Assembly: GCA_045598325.1 (NCBI GenBank)
Contig: JAZLLT010000050.1
Location: forward strand, 493 to 64,492
DNA: 64,000 nt
DNA from: Clostridia bacterium
Lineage (GTDB): Bacteria; Bacillota; Clostridia; Christensenellales; Aristaeellaceae
Reading direction: 5' to 3'
Under the pieces are notes generated by a model that ran no database searches, was not told the origin of the DNA, and was given only the letters and a program-made list of their open reading frames with translations. Shown here piece after piece: positions 8,064 through 43,019 of the stretch; position 1 is the stretch's first letter, and each line of letters starts with the position of its first letter. The translations under genes and the position numbers were made by a program.

Positions 8064-8082
8064 ATTCTTATCGTCATTTTAC

Positions 8083-11151: not shown

Positions 11152-11168
11152 GCTGTCACCTCTAAATA

Positions 11169-11372: not shown

Positions 11373-11373
11373 A

Positions 11374-11934: not shown

Positions 11935-11938
11935 GCTG

Positions 11939-12202
11939 TCACCTCTTTGCTTTTTTCTCCCAATAGCGCATACGCTCTTTCTCTGCGTGTATCACATTGC
12001 AGTAAAAGCACATAGTCCTTCCGTTCTGTCGTGGGTTTTTACCGCAGTACACACATAGTCCGGCGTCATAACGCTTCTGTTTGAGTTTCTTTTTTAGTTC
12101 TGCAGTTTTATTACAGCAGGCTTTACATAGCATACGCCCGCTTTGAGCGGGATTTTTCTTACAATGGCTGCACATCGTAATTTCGCTCATGTCGCACCTC
12201 AT
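11939..12202 (-). CDS. hypothetical Cys-rich (multi CxxC) zinc-finger phage protein
   Basis: 87 aa with CSHC...CKAC...CVYC...CFYC. The start overlaps the SSB stop (ATGA-type coupling). Confidence 0.6.
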   Translation of the reverse strand: MRCDMSEITMCSHCKKNPAQSGRMLCKACCNKTAELKKKLKQKRYDAGLCVYCGKNPRQNGRTMCFYCNVIHAEKERMRYWEKKAKR

Positions 12203-12624: not shown

Positions 12625-13412
12625 TCGTTTCTCCTGTCCATATAGTCGATAGCATCCGCTTCCGTATAGCACCCATTATCTACCCAGTCTCGCAAAAGCG
12701 ACATGATGTACTGGATCGGGAATTTCGGATTGGCTGTCGCGGCTGTTTGTATCGCGTAATCGAGCAGGCTGTCCGATATGTGATTCATGCACACATATTC
12801 CGCAAGCCGCTTAATAAACGCGGGTGTCGGCGTGATGCCGAAGTGCGTTCTGTATGAGCGCACGATTTCGCCTTCCCTGCCCTGTACCTCGAATTGAAAG
12901 TCCTCGCGCACACACGCGAGTTCTCTTACTATCTCTTCTTCATCCTCATCAATATATTTTATTTTATTTATATAAAATGGGGCGTCCTTGGGTACATGGT
13001 TGGGTACAGGGTTGGTATCATGGTTGGGTATATTGTTGGGTACATTGTTGGGTACATTGTTGGGTACGGATTTGTACCCAACATTCACACTCAAATAGAG
13101 GAGTCGATAGGCGGGATTGCGCTTATTGCGCTCTCCCTTGGTAAAATCAATGAGTCCTCTTTGTTTGAGTGCGTTGCGTGCATCATCGATCCCGCGCTTG
13201 TCGAGGGTACTGTATAAATTCAATTCGCCATTCGATACGCAGATAAAATCGTCTGACCAGTCGTATGTTTTGGTACGCACATCGTATACCGCCCTGTCGT
13301 TGGCGATATAAAATAATGCCATCCATAACGCACGCTCACGCAATGACAGATTGTTATCCCGCGCAAATCTCATAAACAAATCAAATTCATCCACGAAATT
13401 CACACTTGACAT
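12621..13412 (-). CDS. replication initiation protein, DnaD-domain type, with internal VPNN repeat linker
   Basis: ORF 12621..13709 trimmed to the ATG at 13412 (AAGGAAG upstream). The C-terminus ...PKFPIQYIMSLLRDWVDNGCYTEADAIDY resembles the DnaD/DnaB_2 domain. It lies just upstream of SSB. Confidence 0.7.
   Translation of the reverse strand: MSSVNFVDEFDLFMRFARDNNLSLRERALWMALFYIANDRAVYDVRTKTYDWSDDFICVSNGELNLYSTLDKRGIDDARNALKQRGLIDFTKGERNKRNPAYRLLYLSVNVGYKSVPNNVPNNVPNNIPNHDTNPVPNHVPKDAPFYINKIKYIDEDEEEIVRELACVREDFQFEVQGREGEIVRSYRTHFGITPTPAFIKRLAEYVCMNHISDSLLDYAIQTAATANPKFPIQYIMSLLRDWVDNGCYTEADAIDYMDRRNE
12988..13082. repeat. seven tandem 12-bp iterons (TTGGGTACATTG-like) plus one inverted copy, flanked by a 28-nt pure A/T tract (12951..12978)
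   Basis: Read directly: units start at 12988, 13000, 13012, 13024, 13036, 13048 and 13060. GTTGGGTAC (13059..13067) and GTACCCAAC (13074..13082) are reverse complements. Confidence 0.9.
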
Positions 13413-13440
13413 ATTGCTGCTTCCTTTGCTGCTTATTCGC

Positions 13441-13869
13441 TTAAGTTTTCCCTGTGCTTCCGATACCGCCCCTGCTCTTGTTGCCGAGGATATCCACTTG
13501 GCAAAAGCGCAGGCGCGGCTGATGCTTAACGATGCGGAACTGGCATATGCGATCGTTGCGCTCAATGTGCGTATCCTCTGTGGCGTATGCGAGGAAATTC
13601 CACTCGTCAAAATCGCCTTTATAACTCTCGTCAATAATGCCGATACTGCCCGCCAAGAGGATACGGTACTTGCGGAATGTGCTTGAGCGCGGTGCCATGA
13701 TTGCCTCATACCCTTTCGGCAGTTCCATTGCCACGCCGAGAGGGATTTGCGTATACTCCCCCTTTACCATGTCGATTGTGCATCCTGCGCGAAGGTCTAT
13801 CCAGTCACCAACGCTGATTTTCTGTATCGGCGTCACATCGCGCAGGTAGCGTACCTTGATCGTTTTCAT
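13441..13869 (-). CDS. dut: dUTP diphosphatase
   Basis: 142 aa with dUTPase motifs (AMELPKGYEAIMAPRSS, GIIDESYKGD, RGGIGSTGK). Confidence 0.9.
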   Translation of the reverse strand: MKTIKVRYLRDVTPIQKISVGDWIDLRAGCTIDMVKGEYTQIPLGVAMELPKGYEAIMAPRSSTFRKYRILLAGSIGIIDESYKGDFDEWNFLAYATEDTHIERNDRICQFRIVKHQPRLRFCQVDILGNKSRGGIGSTGKT

Positions 13870-13873
13870 GTGT

Positions 13874-14365
13874 CTATACTCCGTATTCTTTGATTTCGCG
13901 CACGATTTCGCGCACCTTTACGCGGTTGTTCCATCCGGCGATCTGCGTCCGTGCGATACTGTATTCATGGCGCGGTATCTCGTTCATCTGCCCGACACCG
14001 TACCGGGCAAGTACTTCCGCACGGATGACGCGGGACAGCCTGTCTACCGCCTTTTTGATGCTCTGCGGATAGAAGCCGCTTTCCTCATCTTCCCACGCGG
14101 CAAGTTTCTCTTTCGCCGTTGTGCGGATGTCCGCGTTAAGGTATTTCACTTGCTGTGCGGTCACGGGCGTATTGAGTTTCACCTGCATTTCAAGTGCCTC
14201 CATGCGCTCGCTCATCATCTTCTGCTGCTGACTCACATCCTTCAAGGCTTCCACATTCTGCTCGATCATCTGCGCCATAGCCCGAAGAACGGGGTTCATG
14301 ATGGTATTGATGACCTCCGCCAGTTCGCCGCCGTTAGGCACGACAACGCACATCTCGTCCGTCAT
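13874..14365 (-). CDS. hypothetical phage protein with ORF6C-like C-terminal domain
   Basis: ORF trimmed to the ATG at 14365 (overlaps the upstream stop, ATGA). A coiled-coil segment is followed by ...YGVGQMNEIPRHEYSIARTQIAGW, recalled as the ORF6C pattern. Confidence 0.55.
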   Translation of the reverse strand: MTDEMCVVVPNGGELAEVINTIMNPVLRAMAQMIEQNVEALKDVSQQQKMMSERMEALEMQVKLNTPVTAQQVKYLNADIRTTAKEKLAAWEDEESGFYPQSIKKAVDRLSRVIRAEVLARYGVGQMNEIPRHEYSIARTQIAGWNNRVKVREIVREIKEYGV

Positions 14366-15297
14366 ACTACCGCCTCCTCGCTGATGATAACACCGTTCAC
14401 GGTACCGAGTGCTTTCTGCGCCCTTGCACACCAGTCCGCGACTGTCTTTAAGCAACTTTCGTATACATCCGTTTCCTCCTGCGTCATCTTGGCGAAAGCG
14501 TTGCCCATGTAAGGCATTTGCGCCACTTCGCCCATGAAAATGCGCACGGCGCGAACAAAGGAATCGGGCGTCAGTTTTTCACTCACTTCGTGTTCGGCAT
14601 CTTTCTTCGCCGCGTCACTCTGCGCGTCAAGCAGTTTCATGCGCATATTGTCAATGTCCGCCTGCTGTTCTTCGACAATACGGGCGTAATCCTTGATTTC
14701 GCTCCGTGCCTTGCCGAGTTCTTCGTCAAGCGAGAGCCTGCTGTCGAGGAGTTCCTTGTTTGTTTCACCCGCAGCGGTGATTTCATCCTTATACCGCTTG
14801 ATGGTATCGTCCTTCTCGCGCAGTTGATCCGTGATTTCCTGCGGGATTTCCACGGGACGCTTAAGTATCTCGTCCGCTTCCCTGCGGGCTTCATCGGCTT
14901 CGGCTTGCGCCTTGTCGATTTGTGCCTGCATTTCGCTCCGCACCTGCTTCACCGCGTCATTGATTTCGCGGCTCGTCATGCTCTTTACATCGTGCGTATC
15001 GAAGAACTCGTCCTCTTTGCCCTGCGGAAGCGCAAGCAGTCCCCAAATCTGCGACTTGGAAAGTCCTTCCACCATCGGCACATTGCCGTACCGCTCGTAT
15101 GCCGCCATGCAGTTCTGCGCCCAACGCAGGCTCATTCCGCTGTTGACGGATACCCACTTCTCCCAGTCTCCGTGCTTGACGAGGGGCTTCGCCTCCGTAA
15201 ACACTCTCCCCAGTTGCATGAGGTTGCTTGCCACATTACTGGCGAATGTCTGTGCCTGCATAGCCAGTCCGTCAAGCGTAGTCAGTTCGTTACCCAT
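14362..15297 (-). CDS. DUF3102-like phage protein with long coiled-coil
   Basis: 311 aa. The N-terminal pattern GRVFTEAKPLVKHGDWEKWVSVNSGMSLRWAQNCM fits DUF3102 (from memory). GGAGGA RBS. Confidence 0.65.
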   Translation of the reverse strand: MGNELTTLDGLAMQAQTFASNVASNLMQLGRVFTEAKPLVKHGDWEKWVSVNSGMSLRWAQNCMAAYERYGNVPMVEGLSKSQIWGLLALPQGKEDEFFDTHDVKSMTSREINDAVKQVRSEMQAQIDKAQAEADEARREADEILKRPVEIPQEITDQLREKDDTIKRYKDEITAAGETNKELLDSRLSLDEELGKARSEIKDYARIVEEQQADIDNMRMKLLDAQSDAAKKDAEHEVSEKLTPDSFVRAVRIFMGEVAQMPYMGNAFAKMTQEETDVYESCLKTVADWCARAQKALGTVNGVIISEEAVV

Positions 15298-15330
15298 TGT
15301 GTGATCCTCCGTGTAATATATGATAAACGC

Positions 15331-15359
15331 TTGACTTATCCGAATATATCGTGTATAAT
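15331..15359 (+). promoter_or_regulatory. consensus sigma-70-type promoter pointing against the early operon
   Basis: TTGACT (15331..15336), a 17-nt spacer, then TATAAT (15354..15359). Confidence 0.55.
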
Positions 15360-15365
15360 ATCCGT

Positions 15366-15470
15366 GTAAGCCAGTCGCTTACCTCGCACTCGTATGGCAG
15401 ACCGTTGTCCGGCAAGATAGACGGTCTGTCATTTTTCTTTGTCCGCAGTTTCGTTCTGCGGATTTTCTTT
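15366..15470 (+). ncRNA. candidate phage antisense small RNA (about 75 nt to the first terminator, about 105 nt to the second)
   Basis: A plus-strand promoter is followed by two plus-strand terminator-like hairpins. The first stem spans 15396..15430 and is followed by ATTTTTCTTT. The second stem is TCCGCAG/CTGCGGA at 15442..15462 and is followed by TTTTCTTT. Confidence 0.4.
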
Positions 15471-15602
15471 ACCCCATCGCGTTTTGATAAGGTAGTATAG
15501 ACTAATTTCGCAATGCGCCGTATCCTTGTCGTGTTTCACGGCGCAGATCGGGCAGGAGCCGCGCAAAGGAGGCACGAATGTATAATGCTTTGCGTTTTCC
15601 AT
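15429..15602 (-). CDS. small hypothetical phage protein, 57 aa (CPIC..H..HC)
   Basis: Hand-translated as MENAKHYTFVPPLRGSCPICAVKHDKDTAHCEISLYYLIKTRWGKENPQNETADKEK. AGGAGGCAGG lies directly upstream of the ATG. Confidence 0.5.
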   Translation of the reverse strand: MENAKHYTFVPPLRGSCPICAVKHDKDTAHCEISLYYLIKTRWGKENPQNETADKEK

Positions 15603-15610
15603 CCTGCCTC

Positions 15611-16036
15611 CTATTGCTCTATGATTTCGATATGATACGCGTCCATCATAAGACGCTTTTTGATTTTGTATACCTTGTCTTTCTTGGTGGCTTCGCTCTT
15701 GGCGTCAATGACTTCCACTCCGCCGTCCTTGCGCGTCACCACAAAATCCGCGATATATTTGATGCCGCCCGGAAGATAAAACACTACCTGCCTTGCGACA
15801 GACGCGATTTCTCCCGCCTTTGCCCGCAACTTTACCTGCTCGTATACACGCGCTTCATGCCGCGAGTCGAACTTCCCGTCCTCCGTGACCGTCTTGATGT
15901 TCCCGTACTTCGTGCGTTCCGATTTCGCGGGCGCGTCATTTGAGGAAGTATGCGGGCGTATAACTTCCTGCGCTTTGCGACCCGTCCGAGCCGTGTAATC
16001 TTTGAGCCACTTCTCGTCAAATACGAGCCTGCTCAT
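15611..16036 (-). CDS. DUF1064-family phage protein (putative nuclease)
   Basis: KYGNIKTVTEDGKFDSRHEARVYEQ...IKYIADFVV...VIDAKS matches the DUF1064 pattern. Confidence 0.75.
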   Translation of the reverse strand: MSRLVFDEKWLKDYTARTGRKAQEVIRPHTSSNDAPAKSERTKYGNIKTVTEDGKFDSRHEARVYEQVKLRAKAGEIASVARQVVFYLPGGIKYIADFVVTRKDGGVEVIDAKSEATKKDKVYKIKKRLMMDAYHIEIIEQ

Positions 16037-16254
16037 CTGCTGACCACCACGGCGTTGCCGTACTGGAGCCAGTATAGGAACGATATGCGCGGTATCCGCA
16101 CGCTCCTGCCTATCACCGTTACGGCAAATCCCAACTTCGCCGGATTCTCCTGCGCCTGTGTCCTTACGCTCTGCGGGTCAGTCCCAAGCACCTCGCTTAC
16201 ATCAGCAGGCGTGAGCATCATCTTATCGCTTGTGCGAATCTCATCAATCGTCAT
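16033..16254 (-). CDS. small helix-turn-helix DNA-binding protein (excisionase/MerR-like fold)
   Basis: 73 aa. MLTPADVSEVLGTDPQSVRTQA... looks like an HTH. It is the second gene of the early operon. Confidence 0.55.
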   Translation of the reverse strand: MTIDEIRTSDKMMLTPADVSEVLGTDPQSVRTQAQENPAKLGFAVTVIGRSVRIPRISFLYWLQYGNAVVVSR

Positions 16255-16257
16255 GGT

Positions 16258-16446
16258 TCATCCTTCTTCTAATAAATCACCCATGCGGCAGCCGAACAGA
16301 TCAGCAAGTTTGCGCAGGGTCGCAGGACGCGGAATATGACCCTCGGTTTCCCATCTGCAAACCGCGCTTCTGTCTACTTCAAGTAAATCAGCAAGATCTT
16401 GTTGGGTTAATTTTGCTTTTTTTCTGTAAGATTCGATTCGGTTCAT
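16258..16446 (-). CDS. Cro-like XRE-family HTH regulator
   Basis: ORF trimmed to the ATG at 16446 (AGGAG upstream): MNRIESYRKKAKLTQQDLADLLEVDRSAVCRWE. It is divergent from the cI-like gene. Confidence 0.8.
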   Translation of the reverse strand: MNRIESYRKKAKLTQQDLADLLEVDRSAVCRWETEGHIPRPATLRKLADLFGCRMGDLLEEG

Positions 16447-16464
16447 TTTTCTCCTAAAGTTTTG

Positions 16465-16588
16465 TATCTGCACATTCTGTCGCTCTGTGTGTTGTTTCTG
16501 CACTTGTGATTGCAATTATAAGTCATGTTTCTGTACTTGTCAATAGATTTTGTGATATTTTTGCACTTTTTATTGTAATGTGCAGATA
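16465..16588. promoter_or_regulatory. operator set of the immunity switch (CTGCAC-core sites)
   Basis: TATCTGCACATT (16465..16476) and its exact reverse complement AATGTGCAGATA (16577..16588). GTTTCTGCACTTGT (16494..16507) and GTTTCTGTACTTGT (16527..16540) lie 33 bp apart. TTTGCAC lies near 16560. Confidence 0.55.
16515..16543 (-). promoter_or_regulatory. early (cro-side) promoter, consensus
   Basis: Minus strand reads TTGACA (16543..16538), a 17-nt spacer, then TATAAT (16520..16515). One operator copy lies in the spacer/-35 and another just downstream of the -10. Confidence 0.65.
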
Positions 16589-16590
16589 AT
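16561..16590 (+). promoter_or_regulatory. candidate cI-side promoter
   Basis: TTGCAC (16561..16566), an 18-nt spacer, then GATAAT (16585..16590). It is overlapped by the AATGTGCAGATA operator copy. Confidence 0.4.
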
Positions 16591-16618
16591 ACACTTATAC
16601 TAATCCAGAGGTGATAAA

Positions 16619-16966
16619 ATGGATAACTTAAAAAAGTTGCGACTGCTGCGTGGGATTCGGCAAAAAGATATAGCCGATATGCTGGGTGTAGAAAGAACGA
16701 CATACAATAGATACGAAACCGGAGCAAGCGAGCCATCCTACCAAATACTAATCAAGCTTGCGGACATCTTCGGAACCAGTACAGACGAAATCCTCGGTCA
16801 TGCCGTTGGTACATGCAAGCCCGGGAGAGACATAGCAAACATAGAATTGACAAAGAAGGCTTCGTTTCTCAACGAAAGCGGCATAGAAGAGTTGATGCAC
16901 TATGCCGACTATCTTGCAACTCAATCCCGTTATCAAAAAGACACATCTACCGAACAGGCAATATAA
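16619..16966 (+). CDS. CI-like XRE-family HTH repressor
   Basis: 115 aa. LRLLRGIRQKDIADMLGVERTTYNRYETG is an HTH. AGAGGTGA RBS. Confidence 0.85.
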   Translation: MDNLKKLRLLRGIRQKDIADMLGVERTTYNRYETGASEPSYQILIKLADIFGTSTDEILGHAVGTCKPGRDIANIELTKKASFLNESGIEELMHYADYLATQSRYQKDTSTEQAI

Positions 16967-16993
16967 TCCACATTGAATAAGGAGGAAGTCACA

Positions 16994-17386
16994 ATGTACG
17001 AATGGAAATGGGAAGTCAGAGAGTCAAGTCTCAAAAAAGCCGTCGAGTTCAAGCCTGCCGACATACTGTCGATAGATAAAAATAAACCGCTCATCGTAAT
17101 CAACGGTCATACCGCGAATCTTGAAGAATGTAACTGTCAAGATTATACTAAATCAAAAGGCGGCGTCCATGCCTGCAAGCACATGATCCGTCTCGCCATA
17201 GAACTTGGAATCATCAACAAAAGCGGCAACACGCCCGAACAGCAGTACGCCGCAGACAAGCACGAATACCGCAATGTTATCGCTATGGCTTACGGCAGAT
17301 ACCATCTGTTCCACGAACCCTTGATGACTGATGAAGAATATGACAAAATGAAAGCGGAATACAAAGAAAAATACAGAGAATTATAA
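16994..17386 (+). CDS. SWIM-type zinc-finger protein (lysogeny-module accessory gene)
   Basis: CNCQDYTKSKGGVHACKH fits the CxC..CxH SWIM signature. The ATG at 16994 has AAGGAGGAAG upstream and is preferred to the TTG at 16973. Confidence 0.65.
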   Translation: MYEWKWEVRESSLKKAVEFKPADILSIDKNKPLIVINGHTANLEECNCQDYTKSKGGVHACKHMIRLAIELGIINKSGNTPEQQYAADKHEYRNVIAMAYGRYHLFHEPLMTDEEYDKMKAEYKEKYREL

Positions 17387-17390
17387 AGAC

Positions 17391-17419
17391 AAAAAAACCG
17401 CCGTGCAGCAACACGGCGG
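17391..17419. terminator. GC-rich hairpin between the SWIM gene and the integrase; the U-tract is present only for minus-strand transcription
   Basis: A7, then CCGCCGTG-cagcaa-CACGGCGG (17398..17419). There is no T-run on the plus-strand side. Confidence 0.45.
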
Positions 17420-17514
17420 CGCGCTTGTCGGCACACACATACTTTCAAGCATGGTTATTGTATCACAGGTGAAACGATTTGTAAAGCCCTTTCCGAAAAT
17501 AAAGTGAGGAAAAT

Positions 17515-18612
17515 ATGCTCTGCGTCAAATGCAAAAAGGAGATTCCCGATATTTCGCTTTACTGTATGTTCTGCGGACGGAAACAGACAACGACAGCGCA
17601 GGCGGTAAAGCATCGCGGCAACGGGCAAGGCTCTGTCTACAAACTTCCGAACGGCAAGTACCGCGCAGCGGTCACAGTCGGATATTATATCGGTGATGAC
17701 GGAAAAGCGAAGCGCAAAGTACGCACGCGCGAATTTATTAAGAAGTCGGATGCCATCGCGTTCCTGCCGTCACTCAAAACGGACACGCCGAAGGCTGACG
17801 ATATGTCGCTGCGTGAACTGTACGATGTATATATCAAATCGCCCGATTACATTGCTCTGTCCGGCTCGCAGAAGGACAAACTCTCCTATGCGTGGAAACG
17901 CCTGTCCCCAATCGAATACCGTATGATTACCACACTCACGGTGTCGGATATGGAGCAGATCATCTCGGACACGGTATCGTCCTATTATCCGGCGCGGGAT
18001 ATGAAAGTCATGCTTTCCCATTTGTATGTCATCGCCGTCAAGCGGGAAATCATCGCCTATAATAAAACGGATTATGTCGATTTGCCTTTTGACGCGCCCA
18101 AAGCAAAGCGCGACAGATGGACGCAGGAAGAAGTCGAAAAGATGTGGGCTGACTATGCGGACCATCCGTTCACCGCATATCCGCTCATTATGTGCTATTC
18201 GGGTATGAGATACGGTGAACTGTACGGGATGCTGCTGACCAATATCCACCTTAACGACAACTATATGATCGGCGGCATCAAGACAGAAGCGGGTATAGAC
18301 CGCGAAATCCCGATACACACCCGTATCAAGCCGTTGATCGAGCGCATGATGCAGGGCAGAAAACACCGACTTCTCGAAATGGATGAGATGCGTTTCTACC
18401 GACAGTATCACGAAATGATAGAGCGCACGGGCATCCGCGACCTGCCGCCGCAGACCTGCCGCCACTTCTACTTCTCCGCCATGACTGAAGCGGGCGTACA
18501 AGGCGGCATCATAGCAGAAGCAGGAGGACACGCCTCCTATACCACCACAATGAAGAACTATGTTCGCATCCCGCTCGAAGAAAAACTGAAAGCGGTCAAC
18601 ACGATAAAATAA
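17515..18612 (+). CDS. int: tyrosine recombinase / phage integrase with N-terminal zinc ribbon
   Basis: 365 aa. The N-terminus has CVKC...CMFC. The C-terminal catalytic region reads ...TCRHFYFSAM...GGHASYTTTMKNYVRI. Confidence 0.9.
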   Translation: MLCVKCKKEIPDISLYCMFCGRKQTTTAQAVKHRGNGQGSVYKLPNGKYRAAVTVGYYIGDDGKAKRKVRTREFIKKSDAIAFLPSLKTDTPKADDMSLRELYDVYIKSPDYIALSGSQKDKLSYAWKRLSPIEYRMITTLTVSDMEQIISDTVSSYYPARDMKVMLSHLYVIAVKREIIAYNKTDYVDLPFDAPKAKRDRWTQEEVEKMWADYADHPFTAYPLIMCYSGMRYGELYGMLLTNIHLNDNYMIGGIKTEAGIDREIPIHTRIKPLIERMMQGRKHRLLEMDEMRFYRQYHEMIERTGIRDLPPQTCRHFYFSAMTEAGVQGGIIAEAGGHASYTTTMKNYVRIPLEEKLKAVNTIK

Positions 18613-19054: not shown

Positions 19055-19143
19055 CGGAGAAGCCGGGATTTGAACCCGGGCGGCGGTTATCCCACCCTAC
19101 TCCCTTAGCAGGGGAGCCCCTTCGGCCTCTTGGGTACTTCTCC
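19055..19143 (-). tRNA. tRNA-Ser (anticodon GCU), long variable arm, no encoded CCA
   Basis: The reverse complement reads GGAGAAGTACCCAAGAGGCCGAAGGGGCTCCCCTGCTAAGGGAG...GGGTTCAAATCCCGGCTTCTCCG. The acceptor stem is GGAGAAG/CTTCTCC and the anticodon loop is CT-GCT-AA. Confidence 0.85.
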
Positions 19144-19158
19144 ACAAGCCGAAGATCA

Positions 19159-19244
19159 CGGAGAGAGAGGGATTCGAACCCCCGGTGCCTTTCGACATCA
19201 CTGGTTTTCAAGACCAGCGCCTTCAACCACTCGGCCATCTCTCC
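19159..19244 (-). tRNA. tRNA-Ser (anticodon UGA), long variable arm, no encoded CCA
   Basis: The reverse complement reads GGAGAGATGGCCGAGTGGTTGAAGGCGCTGGTCTTGAAAACCAG...GGGGGTTCGAATCCCTCTCTCTCCG. The anticodon loop is CT-TGA-AA. Confidence 0.85.
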
Positions 19245-34632: not shown

Positions 34633-34661
34633 TTGACATTCAGATGGTTACATTGTATAAT
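34633..34661 (+). promoter_or_regulatory. consensus promoter of the transglutaminase/pilus-like operon
   Basis: TTGACA (34633..34638), a 17-nt spacer, then TATAAT (34656..34661). The ATG at 34668 lies 7 nt after the -10, so a leaderless start is possible. Confidence 0.6.
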
Positions 34662-34667
34662 TGCATT

Positions 34668-35528
34668 ATGAAGCGCGATGTAATGAACATGAACCGGCCC
34701 GACCTTCCGGAGAAGGTGCAGCGGAGAAGAAAAGTCTTCTTCGCACTTTGCGTGATTCTGCTTCTGTCGGCAACCGTTCTGGTCATCGCGGCTGTCACAC
34801 CCCGCTATACATCGACTCCCGAAACAAAAGTATGGACTTACGGCGCTGTTACGATGGACCTGTCAAACGCGTCGGAAGGCTATATCGCCGTCAAGCACTC
34901 GAAGACCGACAAGGGTCTCAAACTCCGTATCATGACCGGCTCCCACATGGACACCTACGATTTATCGGGTGACGGCGAGTACAATATCTTCCCCCTGCAG
35001 TACGGTGCGGCAACATATAATGTGACCACCTACACCGGAGTGGGCGGAAACCGCTACGCGAACGAATGCACCCACGGCTTCTACGCGGACATCAAGGATC
35101 CGGATTCCTGCTTCCTGTATCCCAACCAGCGGGCATGGTACACGGAAGACAGCGCGGTCGTCGCCAAGGCGGCGGAACTGTGCGCGGGACTTGAGACGGA
35201 TCTTGAAAAGATCCAGGCGTGCTACAACTACATACGGGAAAATGTGAAATACGATTACATCTTCGCCATGACCGTGGAAACGGGTTATCTGCCCGACCCG
35301 GACAGCACGCTTGCCAGCGGCAAGGGCATCTGCTACGACATGGCTTCCCTGCTGACCGCCATGCTGCGCTCGCAGGGCATCTACACAAAGACCGTGACGG
35401 GCAATCTCAACAGTAATGTTTACCATGCGTGGAACAAGGTCCTCGTAGACGGAAAATGGAGGATGCTGGATCCGACCAACGGCTCCAGGTACAAGGCCTC
35501 CGCATACGAAGAACTCAGCACATTCTGA
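34668..35528 (+). CDS. membrane-anchored transglutaminase-like (Cys-His-Asp) domain protein
   Basis: An N-terminal TM (FFALCVILLLSATVLVIAAV) is followed by GKGICYDMASLL...VYHAWNKVLVDGKWRMLDPT. The ORF-track start at 34644 lies inside the promoter, so an in-frame ATG at 34668, 34683 or 34689 is the likely start. Confidence 0.75.
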   Translation: MKRDVMNMNRPDLPEKVQRRRKVFFALCVILLLSATVLVIAAVTPRYTSTPETKVWTYGAVTMDLSNASEGYIAVKHSKTDKGLKLRIMTGSHMDTYDLSGDGEYNIFPLQYGAATYNVTTYTGVGGNRYANECTHGFYADIKDPDSCFLYPNQRAWYTEDSAVVAKAAELCAGLETDLEKIQACYNYIRENVKYDYIFAMTVETGYLPDPDSTLASGKGICYDMASLLTAMLRSQGIYTKTVTGNLNSNVYHAWNKVLVDGKWRMLDPTNGSRYKASAYEELSTF

Positions 35529-35544
35529 CAAGGAGCGCAAAACC

Positions 35545-36597
35545 ATGAAGAAGACGGAACGAAACCTGCTTTCCACCGAAGAACTCGGATTTTTCTGCGG
35601 ACAGTTGGCGCTGATGCTGCAGGGCGGCATCCCCATCTACGAGGGCATCGAGGCGCTCAACGAAAACTACAAGACCACCCGTTACGCCTCGGCGTTTTCC
35701 ACCGTATATGAGGAAACGCAGGTGGGTCACTCCCTCTCAGGAGCTATGGAGATGAGCGGACTCTTCCCCGACTATGCCGTGCGCATGGTGCAGGTGGGCG
35801 AGGAAACGGGCAAATTGGAAAGTGTGCTCACTTCCCTTTCCCGCCACTATGAGCGCGAGAGTTCCATCAAGACTGCGGTCAGAAACGCCGTGCGCTACCC
35901 CATCGTGCTCATGTGCATCATGACCGCCGTGGTCTTTGTGCTCAATCTCAAAGTGCTGCCCCTGCTCAAGAGGGTGCTGGCATCTCTTGGTTCCGAGTCC
36001 TCCACCGTCTCCTCCGTCACGATGAAGACCGGTATCGTGCTCGGCATCGTCGTCATGGTGCTGACGCTCCTACTGCTCATTTCCACCGTCATCATCTCCG
36101 CTCTCATCCGTTCGGGGAAGGGCGACGGGCTGATGGATAAACTGAGCCGCGTCGTTCCCGGCATCGGCTCCCTGCGCGCGAAGATCTCCGCGGAGCGTTT
36201 CCTGTCCGTGATGTCCATTTCCCTCTCCGCCGGCTGTCAGACCGAGGAGACCATGGAACGGTGCGCCGCCATGGTGAACGATTCCGCCTCCTCCAGAAAA
36301 GTCAATCTGATTCTCGAAAAAGTGACCGGCGGCATGCCGATGGGCGACGCGGTCATGCAGAGCGATTTCATCGAGCCCCTCAAAGCGCGCATGATCCGCG
36401 TGGGTTTCCTGACGGGACATTCCGAAGAGGTGACCGCCCATGTGGCGGAACTGTACGCCAAGGAAGCGGACGAAGATTTGGAACGCACGCTCGGGCTGCT
36501 GGAGCCCATTCTGGTCTCCGTGCTTGCCGCCGTCATCGGCTGCATCCTGCTGTCCGTCATCGTGCCCCTGGCGGGTGTCATGAGTTTCTTCATCTGA
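35545..36597 (+). CDS. type II secretion / type IV pilus platform protein (GspF/PilC/ComGB family)
   Basis: 350 aa with two T2SS-F-like repeats (FCGQLALMLQGGIPIYEGI... and FLSVMSISLSAGCQTEE...) plus TM segments. AAGGAG RBS. Confidence 0.85.
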   Translation: MKKTERNLLSTEELGFFCGQLALMLQGGIPIYEGIEALNENYKTTRYASAFSTVYEETQVGHSLSGAMEMSGLFPDYAVRMVQVGEETGKLESVLTSLSRHYERESSIKTAVRNAVRYPIVLMCIMTAVVFVLNLKVLPLLKRVLASLGSESSTVSSVTMKTGIVLGIVVMVLTLLLLISTVIISALIRSGKGDGLMDKLSRVVPGIGSLRAKISAERFLSVMSISLSAGCQTEETMERCAAMVNDSASSRKVNLILEKVTGGMPMGDAVMQSDFIEPLKARMIRVGFLTGHSEEVTAHVAELYAKEADEDLERTLGLLEPILVSVLAAVIGCILLSVIVPLAGVMSFFI

Positions 36598-36607
36598 GGA
36601 GGGCAAC

Positions 36608-36916
36608 ATGAAGAGAAAGCGCATCTCCTCCGGCGGTCTTGCCCTCACGGTCATCCTGTTCGTATTGCTGCTTACGGTCAGTTATCTCGTCATCGACCGG
36701 GCGGAAGACCGCATCATCCTTCGGCAGGCGGAGCAGCTCGAGCAGTCCATCCGTTCCGCGGCGGTGAACGCCTACGCGGTCACGGGCTGCTATCCGACCA
36801 TTGAGGAAATCCAGCAGGATTACGGGGTCATCATTGACCGCGAATCGTTTACGGTGAACTATTCCGCCTTTGCATCCAATGTGATGCCCTACATCAGCGT
36901 CAGCGTAAGGAAGTGA
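36608..36916 (+). CDS. small N-terminally anchored protein, pilin-like topology, no canonical prepilin motif
   Basis: 102 aa. MKRKRISSGGLALTVILFVLLLTVSYLV.... GGAGGG RBS. Confidence 0.7.
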   Translation: MKRKRISSGGLALTVILFVLLLTVSYLVIDRAEDRIILRQAEQLEQSIRSAAVNAYAVTGCYPTIEEIQQDYGVIIDRESFTVNYSAFASNVMPYISVSVRK

Positions 36917-36920
36917 TATC

Positions 36921-37385
36921 ATGCGGCACGGTGCCGGAAAACTGATGAGCCTCATCCTCGTGCTCCTCACCCTGATGGGCGCCATGCTGCTGGTGACTCT
37001 GGGCGCGAGCGCTTACAGCAACATCCGCAAAAACACGGATGCCTCCGACGGCAAGCGGATGTCATTGGGCTATGTGGCAAATAAGATTGCGTCCTGTGAT
37101 ACGGCGGGCTGCGTCCGCGCGGAAGAACGCTTCGGGCTCCCCACAATCGTCCTCATCGAAGAAGGTCTGGAGGAATGCGAGACGCTCATCTACTTCTATG
37201 AAGGGCAACTGATGGAGCAGTTCAAACTGACCGAGAGCGAGATCGAGCCGCAGTACGGTACAGTGCTCGCCAATCTTGCCGCGTTCGATTTCGACTGTTC
37301 CCCGAACCGCATCGTGCTGACCGCCACGGAAAGCGGCGGCGCGGTGTCTCAAATGACCGTGGCTCTCATGGCGAAGGGAGAATGA
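36921..37385 (+). CDS. small N-terminally anchored protein (recalled as DUF4860-like), pilin-like topology
   Basis: 154 aa. MRHGAGKLMSLILVLLTLMGAMLLV..., then ...SLGYVANKIASCD...TLIYFYEGQLMEQF. It starts 4 nt after the previous stop. Confidence 0.7.
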   Translation: MRHGAGKLMSLILVLLTLMGAMLLVTLGASAYSNIRKNTDASDGKRMSLGYVANKIASCDTAGCVRAEERFGLPTIVLIEEGLEECETLIYFYEGQLMEQFKLTESEIEPQYGTVLANLAAFDFDCSPNRIVLTATESGGAVSQMTVALMAKGE

Positions 37386-37386
37386 T

Positions 37387-37785
37387 ATGAAGCATTATGT
37401 AAGGTCTTCCCCCATGCTCGCCGAGGTGCTTGTTTCGCTGCTCTTCCTTGCGCTTTGCGTATCCGCCATCGTGGGGGTGTTCGCCGGCGCCTACACCATC
37501 AATCGAAGTGCCACGGACAAGCAGGATGCCCTGTTTTTCGCCCGTGATACGGCGGACAGGTTTACGGTATGTAACCTTCATTCGGATGATTTTCTGTCAG
37601 ATAATGGATTTTCTGCATCAAATAGCGGCAATTACACCCTCATAAGCGGAAATATTACATTTGTTGCGGAAATTTCTTCTGAAAAACCACTTGACGGATT
37701 TACATTTACGGCGTATGATGGAGAAGATGTTTTGTTCTCCTTCCCCGTGGTGAAAATCACCGGTGAGGAGGTGCAGGCGGAATGA
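37387..37785 (+). CDS. small pilin-like protein with degenerate prepilin-like N-terminus (SSPMLAEVLVSLLFLAL)
   Basis: 132 aa. A Glu lies at the position equivalent to +5 of GFTLIE-type pilins, but Ser rather than Gly lies at -1. It starts 1 nt after the previous stop. Confidence 0.7.
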   Translation: MKHYVRSSPMLAEVLVSLLFLALCVSAIVGVFAGAYTINRSATDKQDALFFARDTADRFTVCNLHSDDFLSDNGFSASNSGNYTLISGNITFVAEISSEKPLDGFTFTAYDGEDVLFSFPVVKITGEEVQAE

Positions 37786-38144
37786 AAAAACGGCAGGGTC
37801 CCGTTCATGCCCTACTGGGCTGTGTGAGCATCATTCTGATCCTCACGGTGCTCTCGCTGGTCGCGCTTTCGGTGCTGGCACTCACCCGTGCAAGCAACGA
37901 TGCCCGCATTGCCGATAAGAACGCGCAGTATACGCAGGCCGCGTATGAGGCGAGAGCTGATGCTGTGCGCTACATGGCAAAGGTCCGTGAATGCGGAAAT
38001 GCGGGCGAATATGAAAGCGACTTTCCGGTGCTCGATTCGTCGGTACTGCACCTTCGTTTCTCCCTTTCGGAAGACGGCAAAATATCCGTGCTGAATCATA
38101 CGATCCGTTCCGTTTCGCAGGATGGCGGGTTCGAGATTTTCTAG
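37782..38144 (+). CDS. small N-terminally anchored protein, pilin-like topology
   Basis: 120 aa. MKKRQGPVHALLGCVSIILILTVLSLVALSVLAL.... The start overlaps the previous stop (ATGA). Confidence 0.7.
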   Translation: MKKRQGPVHALLGCVSIILILTVLSLVALSVLALTRASNDARIADKNAQYTQAAYEARADAVRYMAKVRECGNAGEYESDFPVLDSSVLHLRFSLSEDGKISVLNHTIRSVSQDGGFEIF

Positions 38145-38163
38145 CACGAAAGGCGATGAATTT

Positions 38164-39237
38164 ATGGATCTGATCGAATTATTGGGCAAAGCCACAAAGG
38201 CAGGTGCCTCGGATATATTCCTGATCCCGGGCGCACCCGAAACCATCAAAGTAAGCGGAAACCTGAAACCCATTTCGGAAGGCAGACTGACCCCCATGGA
38301 CACCGAAGTGATCGTGCGCCGCATTTATGAAATGGCGTCCAGATCTCTGGAATTCCTGCGCGAAGGCGGCGACGATGACTTCTCCTTCAGCGTGCCGTCT
38401 CTCGGCCGTTTCCGTCTGAATGTCTACAAGCAGCGCAATTCCTATGCCGCGGTGCTCCGCTGCGTGTCCTACACGATCCCCAATCCCAAGGACATGAACA
38501 TCCCCGAGGAAGTGCTTTCCCTCTGTTCCATGCGAAACGGTCTCATCCTCGTGACCGGCGCGGCGGGCAGCGGCAAATCCACGACCCTCGCCTGCATGCT
38601 GGACAAGATCAACGCCGAGCGCACCGGGCACATCATCACCCTGGAAGATCCCATCGAGTTCCTGCACGGGCATAACCGCTGCCTCGTGTCGCAGAGAGAG
38701 GTTTCGCAGGATACGGCAAGTTTCGCCTCCGCCCTGCGCAGCGCCCTCCGTCAGAGCCCGAATGTGATACTGCTGGGCGAAATGCGCGACCTTGAAACCA
38801 TACAGACCGCGCTGACCGCCGTGGAAACGGGGCAGTTGCTCCTTTCCTCCCTGCACACCATCGGCGCCGCGCAGACCGTGGACCGCATCGTGGATGTGTT
38901 CCCGGCGGGACAGCAGGACCAGATCCGCCTGCAGCTGGCACTGGTGCTCAAAGCCGTCGTGTCCCAGCAGCTCATCCCCACCGTGGATGGCGGAGTAGTG
39001 CCCGCCTTTGAAATCATGAAATGCAATGTCGCCATTCAGAACATGATCCGCGACAATAAAACGCATCAGATGGAGAGCGTCATCAAACTTTCCGCCCGCG
39101 AGGGCATGCGTACCATGGATGACGACCTGCTCCGCCTTTGCAGCGAGGGCAGGATCACCGCAGACGCGGCGCTCATGTACTCCATCTATCCCGAACAACT
39201 TAAACGGAAACTGGACGAAAAGAGGTTACTGAAGTGA
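38164..39237 (+). CDS. PilT-type (retraction-ATPase-like) type IV pilus ATPase
   Basis: 357 aa with no PilB/GspE N-terminal extension. Walker A is GAAGSGKST and Walker B is ILLGEMRD. The His box is SSLHT, and the PilT-like motif AIQNMIRDNK is present. The ORF is trimmed to the ATG at 38164. Confidence 0.85.
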   Translation: MDLIELLGKATKAGASDIFLIPGAPETIKVSGNLKPISEGRLTPMDTEVIVRRIYEMASRSLEFLREGGDDDFSFSVPSLGRFRLNVYKQRNSYAAVLRCVSYTIPNPKDMNIPEEVLSLCSMRNGLILVTGAAGSGKSTTLACMLDKINAERTGHIITLEDPIEFLHGHNRCLVSQREVSQDTASFASALRSALRQSPNVILLGEMRDLETIQTALTAVETGQLLLSSLHTIGAAQTVDRIVDVFPAGQQDQIRLQLALVLKAVVSQQLIPTVDGGVVPAFEIMKCNVAIQNMIRDNKTHQMESVIKLSAREGMRTMDDDLLRLCSEGRITADAALMYSIYPEQLKRKLDEKRLLK

Positions 39238-40427
39238 TCGAGATCAATTTACTGGGCAGACTGGAATTTTTCGTAAACGGAAAAGACCTGTGTCCCCTGC
39301 TTTCTTCCATGCGCAAGGGCAAGCAGATGCTGCTTTACCTGATTCTGAGTTACGGAAAGCCCGTATCTTCCCAGGAATTGTATGACGCTCTCTGGCCCGG
39401 AGAAACCAGCGCCAACCCTGAAAGCGCGCTCAAGACCATGGTGAGCCGCCTGCGCTCTTCCCTGTCGGATTTCGATCCCGACCTGAGCAAAGCCATCAAA
39501 ACCGGTCACGGTACCTATTTCTGGAACACTGCCCTTGACATGCAACTTGACATCAAGGAGTTTGCCAAGGTGTGCGCGCAGTTGGATACCCTGTCCGAGG
39601 CGGGTGAAGAACTGGACAAGTGCGTCAGCGACCTGCTTTCCATCTATAACGGCGATCTGTACTTCGGCAAGGAGGAGTTCGGTTTCTTCCTTTCCTGCCG
39701 CGCAGAGTATCATGCCAGGTACATCAACGCTATCGAAAAGGCGGTCAAACTGTATAAATCCGCCGAGAAACTGGACGCGGTCATCCATCTGTGCCGCAGT
39801 GCCATCGACCTGGACGCCTTCGCGGAGAACCTGCACATCGAGCTCATGGACGCGCTGGTCAAGAGCGGACGCAGCAACGAGGCGCTCTCCCAGTACCGTC
39901 ACATGTCCAACCTGCACTACAGTTACATGGGCGTTTCCCCCACCCAGAGCATGCAGGACTTCTACGACAGCATCGCCCGCACCGCGGACACGCTGGATGT
40001 GGACGCCCAGCTCATCAAGCGTAACCTGACCGATGATGATGAGCGCAACGGCGCCTATGTGTGCGATTACGCCATCCTCAAGGATATCTACCAGATGCAG
40101 ATGCGGAACCTGCGCAGACTCGGCACTTCCATGTATCTGGCACTCATCATGCTGGCGCCCGCAGGACAGGTCAAGACCTCTCCCCTGGAGTTAGACAAAT
40201 GCATGCACCAACTGCTGTCTGTGATGACTCTGTGCCTGCGTAAAGGCGACACCATCGCCCGCTACAGCCCATCCCAGTTCGTGGTGCTGCTGCCCACCGT
40301 CAATTCCGTGACCGGGCGCGCCGTCATTAAGCGCATCCGCAGCGCCTATTACAGCCGTTATGTCAACCCCGAACTGGTGTTCTCCTACCAGTTGGTTCCC
40401 TTGTCCACCAACGAGGACGACGATTAA
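39234..40427 (+). CDS. SARP-type regulator (OmpR-like wHTH + BTAD) fused to a degenerate GGDEF-like domain
   Basis: The N-terminus LLGRLEFFVNGKDL...LYLILSYGKPVSSQELYDALWP...VSRLRSSL is followed by TPR-like BTAD helices. In the C-terminus, RKGDTIARYSPSQFVVLLP sits where RYGGDEF is expected. The GTG start overlaps the ATPase stop (GTGA). Confidence 0.7.
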   Translation: MIEINLLGRLEFFVNGKDLCPLLSSMRKGKQMLLYLILSYGKPVSSQELYDALWPGETSANPESALKTMVSRLRSSLSDFDPDLSKAIKTGHGTYFWNTALDMQLDIKEFAKVCAQLDTLSEAGEELDKCVSDLLSIYNGDLYFGKEEFGFFLSCRAEYHARYINAIEKAVKLYKSAEKLDAVIHLCRSAIDLDAFAENLHIELMDALVKSGRSNEALSQYRHMSNLHYSYMGVSPTQSMQDFYDSIARTADTLDVDAQLIKRNLTDDDERNGAYVCDYAILKDIYQMQMRNLRRLGTSMYLALIMLAPAGQVKTSPLELDKCMHQLLSVMTLCLRKGDTIARYSPSQFVVLLPTVNSVTGRAVIKRIRSAYYSRYVNPELVFSYQLVPLSTNEDDD

Positions 40428-40437: not shown

Positions 40438-40474
40438 AAGCCTCTCCGTTTTATGCGGAGAGGCTTGTTTTTTA
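40438..40474. terminator. bidirectional intrinsic terminator
   Basis: AAGCCTCTCCG-ttttat-GCGGAGAGGCTT followed by GTTTTTT, between convergent genes. Confidence 0.7.
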
Positions 40475-41470: not shown

Positions 41471-42528
41471 ATGTCTCTGTTCGGCAATCCGTCAAAAACT
41501 CCTGTTGAGCCTTACGCCGTACCCGAAGGCACTCCGCAGATCGAATTCCGCAATCTGCGCAAGGTCTATCAGGTGCCCGGCGGAGAGGTAGTGGCGCTTG
41601 ACGGCATCAACCTTAAAATTGAAAAAGGTCAGTTTACGGCATCATCGGCATGTCCGGCGCGGGCAAGGGCACGCTCATCCGCTTTGTGAATCGTCTGGCG
41701 ACCCCATCCGACGGCGAGATCCTCATCGGCGGCAGAAATGTGCTCGCCATGAACGGAAGCGAACCACTCCGTGCGCGGCGCAAGGTCTGCATGATTTTCC
41801 GGCAGTTCAATCTCCTCATGCAGAAAACCGTGGGCGCCAATGTGCACTATCTCATGGATATCGCCGGTGTCGACCGCAAAACCGCCAACGCGAGAGTCAG
41901 GGAACCGCTCCAAATCGTAGGACTCGAACACAAAATCGGCGCCTACCCCGCTCAACTTTCCGGTAGACAGAAACAGCGCGTCGCCATCGCACGCGCTCTG
42001 GCGAGCGCCCCGGAGATCCTCTTGAGCAACGAGGCTACCAGCGCGCTTGACCTCATGACGCCCCAGAGCATACTGCATCTTTTGCAGAACATCAACAAGC
42101 GCCTCGGCATCACCGTGGTCATCATCACCCACGAAATGGCCGTCATCCGCCAAATCTGCAACTGCGTCGCCATTGTCGACGGCGGCAGAAGCGTGGAGGA
42201 AGGCATGGTGAACGATGTGTTCGTCCACACGAAATCCGCCGCGTGACGCCGCCTGTTCGGCATCGTCGATGAGGAAACAACAGAGGACGAGCCGCCGCGC
42301 GTAATGCGCATCGTGTTTGACGGCGGCAAAGAACATGAGCCCGTCATCTCCATGCTCTCCCGCGAACTGAATGTGGATGTCAACATCCTCTCCGCGGACA
42401 TGAAGCGCATCGGCGGAAAAACCCACGGACAAATGATGATCGAAATGCCCGAAGACTCCGTGGAAGTCAAGTGTGTCGCGGACTTCCTTGAAAGCAAAGG
42501 GCTGACCGTGAAAGAGGTGGTAAATTGA
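41471..42528 (+). pseudogene. metN: methionine-type ABC transporter ATP-binding protein (MetN-like), disrupted by a frameshift and an in-frame stop
   Basis: The frame breaks in the T-run at 41633..41635: IEKGQ in one frame, YGIIGMSGAGKGTLIR in the next. An in-frame TGA lies at 42244..42246. The NIL-like C-terminal domain continues in the same frame at 42304..42528. Confidence 0.7.
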
Positions 42529-43019
42529 TCGACCGATCTCTCTTATGGACAGGCACATACGAAACCCTGCTCATGACGCTGTTCGCGTCCCTGTTCTCCT
42601 ATCTGATCGTTCTGCCGCCGGACCCGCGCCCTTCTGCTTCTGCAGGATGCCGGACTCATCGTCCTAACCGAAGGCGCCGACTACACCGGCATTCTGCGTA
42701 TGGAAGACATCGTGGACACAAGGGCATCAAGATCGTGGAACCGGACGCCCGGATGATCCCTTCCATACCGGATGATGTGGCGTTCGCCGTTATCAACGGC
42801 AACTATGTTCTGGACGCAGACATGAGTATCAGCGACGCGCTCTTCCTTGAAACCGAAGGCGTGACCGGAGCCATCTACACCGACTACATCGTATGCCGTC
42901 CCGAAGATGCAGACAGCGACTGGATGAACGCGCTCAATACCGTGCTGTTCACCGAGAAGGTCTACAACTTCATCTTGAACGCCAACTTTGAAGGCGTCGT
43001 CTCCACTTTCGAATACTGA
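42525..43019 (+). pseudogene. remnant fusing the 5' end of a MetI-like permease gene to the 3' part of a MetQ-like binding-protein gene (internal deletion plus frameshift)
   Basis: The first ~30 codons (MIDRSLLWTGTYETLLMTLFASLFSYLI) look like a permease N-terminus. From ~42624 another frame reads ALLLLQDAGLIVLTEGADYTG..EDIVDT. The ORF frame then reads KGIKIVEPDA...VINGNYVLDA...YTDYIVCRPED..., which is MetQ-like. Confidence 0.6.

Follow-up and report, generated by a model that had tools for sequence, protein, structure and literature searches.

Six classes of bacterial type IV filament are recognized (PMC10191384; PMC6668835). The Com pilus is the minimal class, built from eight parts (five pilins, a prepilin peptidase, an extension ATPase, and a platform protein), and Com pili are thought to have lost the PilT ATPase (PMC10191384). 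In Tad pili, a single bifunctional ATPase, CpaF, works in both directions (PMC11300603), and in Vibrio cholerae MSHA pili, PilT promotes extension (PMC9815625). The pilT gene of Clostridium perfringens is set apart from the pilin loci, and piliation in this species is known to be under the control of cyclic di-GMP (c-di-GMP) (PMC6958937). Here, we analyze an operon of eight genes in a 64,000-nucleotide stretch of DNA from a Clostridia bacterium (GenBank assembly GCA_045598325.1, contig JAZLLT010000050.1, positions 493 to 64,492 of the forward strand). The whole stretch is referred to as the window, and coordinates given without a locus name count from its first letter. In order, the genes encode a transglutaminase-core enzyme (TG), a platform protein of the GspF/PilC/ComGB type, four small membrane proteins (s1 to s4), a PilT-family ATPase, and a SARP regulator; this set of genes is referred to as the cassette. 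The operon is a reduced relative of type IV pili, so far undescribed, and is found again in hundreds of species of gut Clostridia. We put at roughly 50% the probability that its products form a minimal, self-contained system of the type IV filament kind, specific to monoderm Clostridia and working by the mechanism proposed below.

The cassette shares with the Com pilus a compact single operon, a monoderm host, a ComGB-sized platform of ∼350 aa, the lack of PilMNO, and several small pilin-like proteins, of which the last lacks a glutamate at position +5 relative to the cleavage site (Glu+5). The Com peptidase is encoded elsewhere in the genome, and the same is proposed for the cassette. In contrast to the Com pilus, the cassette has a PilT-family ATPase encoded at the end of the block rather than at its start, has no ComGC-type major pilin (and no match to ComGC), falls below the cut-offs for ComGA and ComGB (scores below), and includes an obligatory TG and a SARP-GGDEF regulator. 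The initial annotation of this DNA had pointed out that the order of platform, small proteins, and ATPase differs from that of Tad loci and from that of comG (ATPase, platform, pilins), and this difference holds.

Type IVa pili, as found in Clostridia and Streptococcus sanguinis, resemble the cassette in having a true PilT, a PilC-like platform, and c-di-GMP control (known in C. perfringens, proposed for the cassette), but in 84 cassette loci no PilB, PilD, PilMNO, or canonical pilin is linked, and the platform is paired with PilT, not with PilB. The Tad pilus is alike in concept, with one ATPase for both directions; however, Tad systems have split TadB/TadC platforms, Flp pilins, and TadV, whereas the cassette has a single two-repeat platform and an ATPase that scores far below the TadA cut-off. 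The likeness to MSHA pili is also conceptual, in that PilT aids extension there, but MSHA pili keep an extension ATPase of their own. The pseudopilus tip of type II secretion (GspH-I-J-K) likewise has four small subunits, s3 has a weakly GspI/PilV-type N terminus, and s4 lacks Glu+5; unlike type II secretion, the cassette occurs in a monoderm and has no secretin, GspE/L/M, or GspG, and the likeness stays under all curated thresholds.

The generic detection model of Denise et al. needs an ATPase, a platform, and a recognizable major pilin (PMC6668835), and it would therefore probably miss the cassette. A survey of pilus operons in Gram-positive bacteria, keyed on PilB, TadA, and ComGA, does not describe the cassette. 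In the literature searched, we found no mention of DUF4860 (PF16152), the family of s2, and no description of a transglutaminase-like protein paired with PilT or with pilins.

Operon organization and conservation of the cassette

Eight consecutive open reading frames (ORFs) occupy the + strand from 34644/34668 to 40427. The initial annotation had described them as tightly packed behind one consensus promoter and ahead of a strong terminator, and each element was found where it had been placed. The intergenic spacing is, in order, 16, 10, 4, and 1 nt, an ATGA 4-nt overlap (s3/s4), 19 nt, and a GTGA 4-nt overlap (ATPase/regulator). The sigma-70 promoter (TTGACA, 17 nt, TATAAT; 34633..34661, + strand) matches the consensus at 12 of 12 positions, with a predicted transcription start at ∼34668, and the intrinsic terminator (40438..40474, + strand) consists of a 12-bp stem (40438-40466) with 7 G-C pairs, a 5-nt loop, and a T-run. 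The number of promoter-like and terminator-like sites in the region does not exceed that in shuffled sequence; yet this promoter and this terminator are the best sites, and they flank the block. With one promoter, one terminator, and gaps of at most 19 nt, the block is, as judged from its sequence, a single transcription unit. Shine-Dalgarno sequences (AAGGAG, GAGGAGG, or similar) precede seven of the eight genes. The first gene, that of TG, lacks one, and its ATG (34668) lies only 7 nt past the -10 box, so the TG mRNA is probably leaderless or TG starts instead at 34683 or 34689. Searches with Rfam covered the window and four related loci and found no upstream riboswitch, whether for c-di-GMP or for another ligand. 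A promoter-like site with 10 of 12 matches also lies within the s3 gene (37691-37719), at the chance level for the region (5 found versus 3.2 expected).

Hidden Markov model searches matched all of the domains proposed initially (Transglut_core, T2SSF, T2SSE, DUF4860, BTAD, and, in part, GGDEF). Two products correspond to the generic core of a type IV filament system, namely, a two-repeat platform and a T2SSE-family hexameric ATPase, here of the PilT clade. The platform (350 aa; 35545..36597, + strand) matches Pfam T2SSF over two stretches (6e-41) and is a two-repeat protein of the GspF/PilC/ComGB type. It remains under every NCBIfam equivalog cut-off (GspF, 170 bits against 424; PilC, 130 against 700; ComGB, 110.5 against 240) and belongs to a distinct subfamily of 346 to 356 aa, compared with ∼405 aa for the usual GspF/PilC proteins.

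The ATPase (357 aa; 38164..39237, + strand) scored 410 bits against the cut-off of 319 for TIGR01420, the PilT/PilU family model, and also matched Pfam T2SSE (2.8e-39). It aligns end to end with Aquifex PilT (2gsz; 1.5e-99), while PilB and GspE align over the ATPase core only (∼1e-22 to 1e-24), and the other NCBIfam models gave 114.6 bits for PilB (cut-off 675), 114.5 for ComGA (300), and 42.8 for the TadA type (373). Its length of about 350 aa without an N-terminal extension, its Walker A and B motifs, its Asp and His boxes, and an AIRNLIRE-like motif are those of PilT, and Walker A, the GEMRD box, the His box, and AI(R/Q)NMIR(E/D) are conserved in 67 sequences. The PilT hallmarks noted initially were substantiated by these searches, and on sequence criteria, the seventh gene encodes a true PilT-family member and not one of the extension clade. 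Pfam searches of the operon found no PilM/N/O-like domain.

Relatives of the platform were sought by a profile scan over one genome for each of 185,579 species. The query was a 10-sequence platform alignment; a 21-platform alignment proved too diverse for a genome scan. A platform relative was encoded in 322 stretches. The best 80 of these 322 come from Oscillospiraceae, Lachnospiraceae (Blautia, Dorea, and Butyrivibrio), Caproiciproducens, Anaerotruncus, Negativibacillus, Youxingia, and Massilimicrobiota, and many of the 80 are from human, mouse, and ruminant gut assemblies. Complete or nearly complete genomes with the cassette include those of Massilimicrobiota timonensis f30 (AP031415.1), Caproiciproducens sp. 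R1 (CP194790.1), Anaerotruncus massiliensis AT3 (LT962687.1), Youxingia wuxianensis NSJ-64, Blautia celeris NSJ-34, and Butyrivibrio spp. An exact-sequence look-up of the window's platform matched no record, and a word-based protein search with s2, a method that depends on shared words, returned just 3 relatives.

Gene order was counted by iterative profile searches with the eight window proteins against all ORFs of 84 loci (±10 kb). The order TG-platform-s1-s2-s3-s4 was the same in all 84, apart from truncations at contig ends and one insertion (locus L007). The same genes, order, and Pfam matches were present on contigs whose platforms share only 31 to 32% identity with that of the window, the order was kept among relatives with platforms merely about 31 to 36% identical, and DUF4860 fell on the same gene (s2) in loci L001 to L004. 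Compared in this way, co-conservation of gene order clearly exceeds chance. The initial annotation had named co-conservation across Clostridia beforehand as a test of its interpretation, and the order was kept in the 84 loci, so the interpretation was not refuted on this count. What survives of it is a co-conserved, noncanonical operon of the type IV filament kind; a further part, in which TG takes the place of a prepilin peptidase, does not survive (see below).

A T2SSE-family gene occurs at most once per locus and is always pilT. It directly follows s4 in 66 of the 84 loci, where it is the only linked ATPase gene. In 17 loci, mostly of Lachnospiraceae, no T2SSE-family gene lies within 10 kb; evidently, the cassette can work with an ATPase encoded in trans. 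These PilT-less cassettes adjoin rpoC, ABC-transporter genes, or other genes; rpoB and rpoC are neighbors in about ten of them, again mostly Lachnospiraceae. A SARP regulator gene lies beside the cassette in about 42 loci. Its placement varies: it may precede the cassette on the same strand, diverge from it, or follow it, as it does in the window. In a second subtype, found in 16 or 17 Lachnospiraceae loci, genes for a co-directional membrane GGDEF protein and an extracytoplasmic function (ECF) sigma factor lie upstream of TG in place of the SARP regulator gene; pilT is mostly missing within 10 kb, and rpoC/rpoB often adjoin the cassette. This subtype accounts for 13 of the 17 PilT-less loci. 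It includes L002, L022, L040, L054, L056, L057, L059, L062, L066, L070, L075, and L084, and a possible anti-sigma factor is encoded as well.

The initial annotation had stressed that PilB, a prepilin peptidase, PilMNO, and a canonical pilin were not linked, which is true of the window and, for PilB, the peptidase motif, and the canonical signal, extends to the related loci. Within 10 kb of the 84 loci, which represent many families, as in the window, we found no PilB, second T2SSE or T2SSF gene, prepilin peptidase (A24, sought through the GxGDxK motif and by ORF inspection), canonical pilin, or canonical G-F-T-L-I-E signal. A Flp-like ORF was not seen among the ORFs inspected.

A set of genes with these gaps could be an accessory locus of a multi-locus type IVa pilus, contributing four priming minor pilins, PilT, and a second platform, with PilB, PilD, and the major pilin encoded elsewhere. 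The parts missing here (the major pilin, the peptidase, and the extension ATPase) are the ones that are able to sit elsewhere, and the C. perfringens pilT gene is separate from the pilin loci (PMC6958937). Four is also the usual number of core minor pilins, the last small protein lacks Glu+5 like GspK, PilX, and ComGG, and 17 loci have no linked ATPase. However, platforms normally adjoin the extension ATPase and not PilT, whereas a dedicated platform is invariably linked here. The absence of PilB, PilD, and pilins holds across all 84 loci, the invariable TG has no type IVa counterpart, and s1 and s2 are unlike standard minor pilins. An accessory type IVa role is a serious rival but less probable, and we prefer a self-contained machine.

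Small proteins and the transglutaminase-core enzyme

Each of the four small proteins has one N-terminal hydrophobic helix, with the N terminus inside and the C terminus outside. All four had been described initially as pilin-like; class III-like features are present in s3 and s4 and absent from s1 and s2. The class III signal combines a glycine immediately before the cleavage site (Gly-1), Glu+5, and ∼20 hydrophobic residues, and of the two signal residues s3 has Glu+5 only, s4 has Gly-1 only, and s1 and s2 have neither. Conservation was assessed from column statistics over 82 to 85 relatives.

The minor-pilin-like s3 protein (132 aa; 37387..37785, + strand) has a basic N terminus followed by S-[S/N/G], L-F-L-M-E, and ∼20 hydrophobic residues; the window protein reads RSS followed by PMLAE. 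The glutamate (E13 in the window) is present in 100% of 84 to 85 relatives, five residues past S/N/G, and position -1 is S, N, or G, not strictly Gly. A weak match to the PilV N terminus (3e-05) fell under the cut-off. The s4 protein (120 aa; 37782..38144, + strand) is of the GspK/PilX/ComGG type. Its basic N terminus leads into N-I-G, then S-S-S-I-L-V-I-F, and then a conserved A..YYEA; the glycine (G13) is present in 100% of 82 to 85 relatives, immediately ahead of the hydrophobic stretch, and Glu+5 is missing. We take the combination of A..YYEA and missing Glu+5 to be that of the GspK, PilX, and ComGG class, and two s4 relatives match the ComGG model weakly. Since Gly-1 of s4 and Glu+5 of s3 are invariant, this conservation points to an ordinary prepilin peptidase encoded elsewhere in the genome. 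Profile-profile comparison linked s1 to s3 (probability 69%) and s3 to s4 (49%), in both cases via the N-terminal helix only. In our reading, s3 and s4 are divergent type IV pilin-like subunits, and s1 and s2 are pilin shaped but not demonstrably pilins.

The s1 protein (102 aa, bitopic; 36608..36916, + strand) has no Pfam family. Its N-terminal tip, M-x-R-F, is nearly invariant; a long helix follows, and the small head (CYAxEGxYPxSLxYLxEHYGLxYD) is strongly conserved. Its family comprises 1645 sequence clusters, none with a Pfam family, and every source name among the 120 entries listed is "hypothetical protein." An AlphaFold2 model built with 120 aligned relatives (mean predicted local distance difference test [pLDDT] score, 87.5) has a helix at residues 8 to 59 (52 residues), a helix at residues 65 to 71, and a two-stranded hairpin. 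The model would suit the lollipop of a minimal pilin and would fit a small partner of the PilN/PilO/GspM kind equally well; s1 may be either a pilin-like subunit or a PilN/PilO-like protein. The s2 protein (154 aa; 36921..37385, + strand) belongs to DUF4860 (PF16152; Pfam 1.4e-13, 51 bits against a cut-off of 25) and has an N-terminal hydrophobic helix and a beta-rich head. Its relatives conserve H-x-x-D-x-L-F at the membrane edge and show no cleavage-type motif. The AlphaFold2 model of s2, a long N-terminal helix followed by strands, is weak (shallow alignment; pLDDT 56), and its Foldseek matches were discounted as meaningless for the same reasons.

The features of s1 and s2 also bear on an explanation without a filament, in which the PilT-platform pair would energize a complex of fixed bitopic s1 to s4 (PilN/PilO/GspM-like) that delivers or activates TG or exports cargo, such as a sortase substrate, through the wall. 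The conserved cytoplasmic M-x-R-F tip, long helix, and single alpha-beta-beta head of s1 suit such a role, as do the conserved His and Asp at the membrane edge of s2, its lack of a cleavage motif, and the failure of any solved pilin to match. A sortase gene, moreover, lies between the regulator and TG in 14 of 16 sortase-bearing loci, mostly of Oscillospiraceae. Against this, filament-type packing and processing would account for the invariant Glu+5 and Gly-1, which otherwise find no easy explanation, and a sortase sorting signal is carried by none of the cassette proteins. Known pairs of a GspF-type platform and a T2SSE ATPase all assemble pilin polymers, as is well established (PMC10191384). 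We consider an assembly of this kind unlikely and favor a pilin-like polymer.

TG (286 aa; 34668..35528, + strand, with a start perhaps at 34683 or 34689) is a predicted signal-anchored, extracytoplasmic protein with a Cys-His-Asp triad and a Pfam Transglut_core domain (2.9e-21; 76.2 bits against a cut-off of 23). The triad is conserved in relatives (Cys in 82 of 83, His in 83 of 83, and Asp in 83 of 83). In the window protein, basic residues precede the single hydrophobic helix, which places the catalytic domain outside. Most TG relatives begin with a lipoprotein signal (consensus L-S-G-C) and the remainder, including that of the window, with a signal anchor; the Caproiciproducens proteins have a long Ser/Ala/Pro-rich linker after the lipobox. 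By these predictions, the TG active site is outside the membrane in all relatives examined, on the same side as the heads of s1 to s4. The single sequence matched no solved chain, and the profile gave generic matches only, namely, a putative cysteine protease (3isr) and a protein-glutamine gamma-glutamyltransferase (6g49), which would fit a protease, a cross-linker, or a wall-peptide hydrolase alike.

The initial annotation had proposed that PilT may be the sole, possibly bidirectional, motor and that TG, as a cysteine protease or cross-linker, may take over from a prepilin peptidase in maturing the atypical subunits. This topology decides against the second part. Class III leaders are substrates of polytopic aspartic proteases, which cut them at the cytoplasmic face, so TG, with its active site outside, cannot cut them, and TG was rejected as a prepilin-peptidase substitute. 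Gly-1 of s4 and Glu+5 of s3, moreover, form the substrate signature of an aspartic prepilin peptidase, and 17 cassettes lack a linked PilT. The proposal does account for PilT as the only linked ATPase in 66 loci, for the missing linked peptidase motif, and for a TG with an invariant triad that always comes first in the block, and single bifunctional motors are known (PMC11300603, PMC9815625). On balance, this combination of sole motor and TG maturation is very improbable. As for the motor part taken alone, PilT may build the filament, only take it apart, or do both. The reading that we favor instead is that TG would act extracellularly, on peptidoglycan or on exposed subunits.

Regulator and proposed mechanism

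The last gene encodes a SARP regulator (397 aa; 39234..40427, + strand) with a winged helix (Trans_reg_C, 7e-08, 32.9 bits) and a BTAD domain (3.9e-13, 50.4 bits), both over the cut-off, followed by a degenerate GGDEF domain (1.2e-05, partial). The GGDEF site reads S-P-S-Q-F in the window and S-[A/P]-[T/S]-Q-F in the family, which is not the site of a diguanylate cyclase. Five residues upstream of the lost motif is an RxxD, which is kept in 38 of the 38 relatives that have this region. A degenerate GGDEF domain with RxxD is the pattern of c-di-GMP binding rather than synthesis, as in receptors of the PelD and PopA types. Because the active site is lost and RxxD is kept, the domain looks like a sensor rather than an enzyme. 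The putative link to c-di-GMP is consistent across the subtypes, one with the SARP-GGDEF regulator and the other with a membrane GGDEF protein and an ECF sigma factor.

In the LapG/LapD system, a periplasmic transglutaminase-like cysteine protease is under c-di-GMP control. The cassette is alike by analogy only, pairing an extracytoplasmic enzyme of the transglutaminase fold with a degenerate GGDEF-type protein, a putative c-di-GMP sensor, for the control of a surface structure. In contrast to that system, TG belongs to Pfam Transglut_core and not to the LapG family, the regulator is a DNA-binding SARP protein, and there is no LapA-type adhesin.

We propose the following working model. The c-di-GMP-bound regulator would activate the single promoter. 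The platform and the PilT-family hexamer would form a membrane motor, in which the ATPase turns the platform to build and dismantle a short filament. This filament, a pseudopilus or thin pilus, would consist of s3 and s4 and perhaps s1 and s2; s4 would cap it, and s3 would lie in its core. The s1 protein would be its bulk subunit or else a PilN/PilO-like partner in the membrane. A prepilin peptidase encoded elsewhere, as comC is for comG, would cut at least s3 and s4. Outside the membrane, TG would either open peptidoglycan for the filament or trim or cross-link the exposed subunits. The likely output would be surface adhesion or uptake under c-di-GMP control.

Several points weigh against this model. 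PilT is classically a disassembly (retraction) motor, and the 17 loci with no T2SSE-family gene within 10 kb suggest that it need not be dedicated to the cassette. The conserved cytoplasmic tip of s1 is unlike a disposable leader, and neither s1 nor s2 has Gly-1 or Glu+5. None of s1 to s4 reached the threshold of a curated pilin model in Pfam or NCBIfam. Their profiles gave nothing significant against the sequences of solved structures, the best match being the N terminus of a type IV pilin for s3 (E = 1.5), and Foldseek with the s1 model returned no match at E ≤ 0.001, with Neisseria pilins at E of ∼5 only. Both the filament and its function are predictions from the genes.

A bolder version would make the cassette a seventh class of bacterial type IV filament, with a PilT-family protein as the native assembly or bidirectional motor on its own platform, a class III signal that has largely been abandoned, an obligatory TG partner (for maturation, cross-linking, or wall opening), and a c-di-GMP-sensing SARP switch, in the dominant gut Clostridia. 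We regard this version as doubtful.

Lachnospiraceae and Oscillospiraceae are core members of human, mouse, and ruminant gut communities, and their surface organelles are almost unstudied. The cassette is conserved in at least 322 species, counted by relatives of its platform, and current type IV filament finders would probably miss it because the small proteins pass no tested Pfam or NCBIfam pilin model and there is no extension ATPase. If PilT proves to be a working motor, the cassette would allow a direct test of whether a "retraction" ATPase can build a filament and of how small an assembly complex can be. It also places DUF4860 and three unnamed protein families (1645 clusters for s1 alone) in a functional context and points to a class of SARP-degenerate-GGDEF regulator that may read c-di-GMP.

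Neighboring genes and minor observations

The genes around the operon in the window are unrelated to it. Upstream are genes for a TetR protein, a YitT-type membrane protein, a beta-lactamase-fold protein, and a Y-family polymerase, and downstream is a methionine ABC transporter. The GC content of the block is that of its flanks. An origin from a mobile element was rejected given this match in GC content, the lack of an adjacent integrase, and the housekeeping neighbors (rpoB and rpoC) of about ten PilT-less loci. A tblastn search of plasmid records found no plasmid-borne copy of the cassette.

Around related cassettes, the sortase gene (Pfam Sortase, 2.5e-17; L008:5993-6739) lies on the cassette strand between the regulator and TG. 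The other 13 loci with this arrangement are L009, L010, L012, L013, L015, L019, L020, L036, L037, L043, L050, L072, and L081. In the two remaining sortase-bearing loci, the gene lies after TG (L021) or ∼9 kb away on the opposite strand (L071). No LPXTG-type sorting signal was seen in the cassette proteins of the sortase-bearing loci. A protein of 148 to 164 aa with no Pfam family, absent from the window, recurs beside the cassette (L081:14140-14634, L003:8294-8740, and 18 further loci), encoded either just after PilT or divergently beside the regulator. In a Blautia assembly (L007:12465-16462), an insertion of ∼4 kb separates s3 from s4 and there is no PilT; this copy of the cassette may be disrupted. 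Near two cassettes, perhaps by coincidence, are genes for very large surface proteins with adhesin-type domains (L003:1-4829, Cna_B/SpaA/DUF7601; L002:11846-14002, AgI_II_C2/CLIPPER).

Two further observations concern the window outside the operon. The methionine ABC operon (41471-43019) is decayed. A tblastn comparison, for which the syntenic locus L001 supplied intact proteins, placed a frameshift in metN near 41623-41635 and showed that metI residues 27 to 219 and metQ residues 1 to 167 are deleted, leaving a metI'-'metQ fusion ORF. Positions 1-18612 and 19055-19244 cover a prophage-like block, identified with PHROGs, and two tRNA genes next to it. The genes of its head maturation protease (2028-3161), portal protein (3130-4731), and large terminase (5001-6869) are on the - strand, and that of its integrase (17515-18612) is on the + strand.

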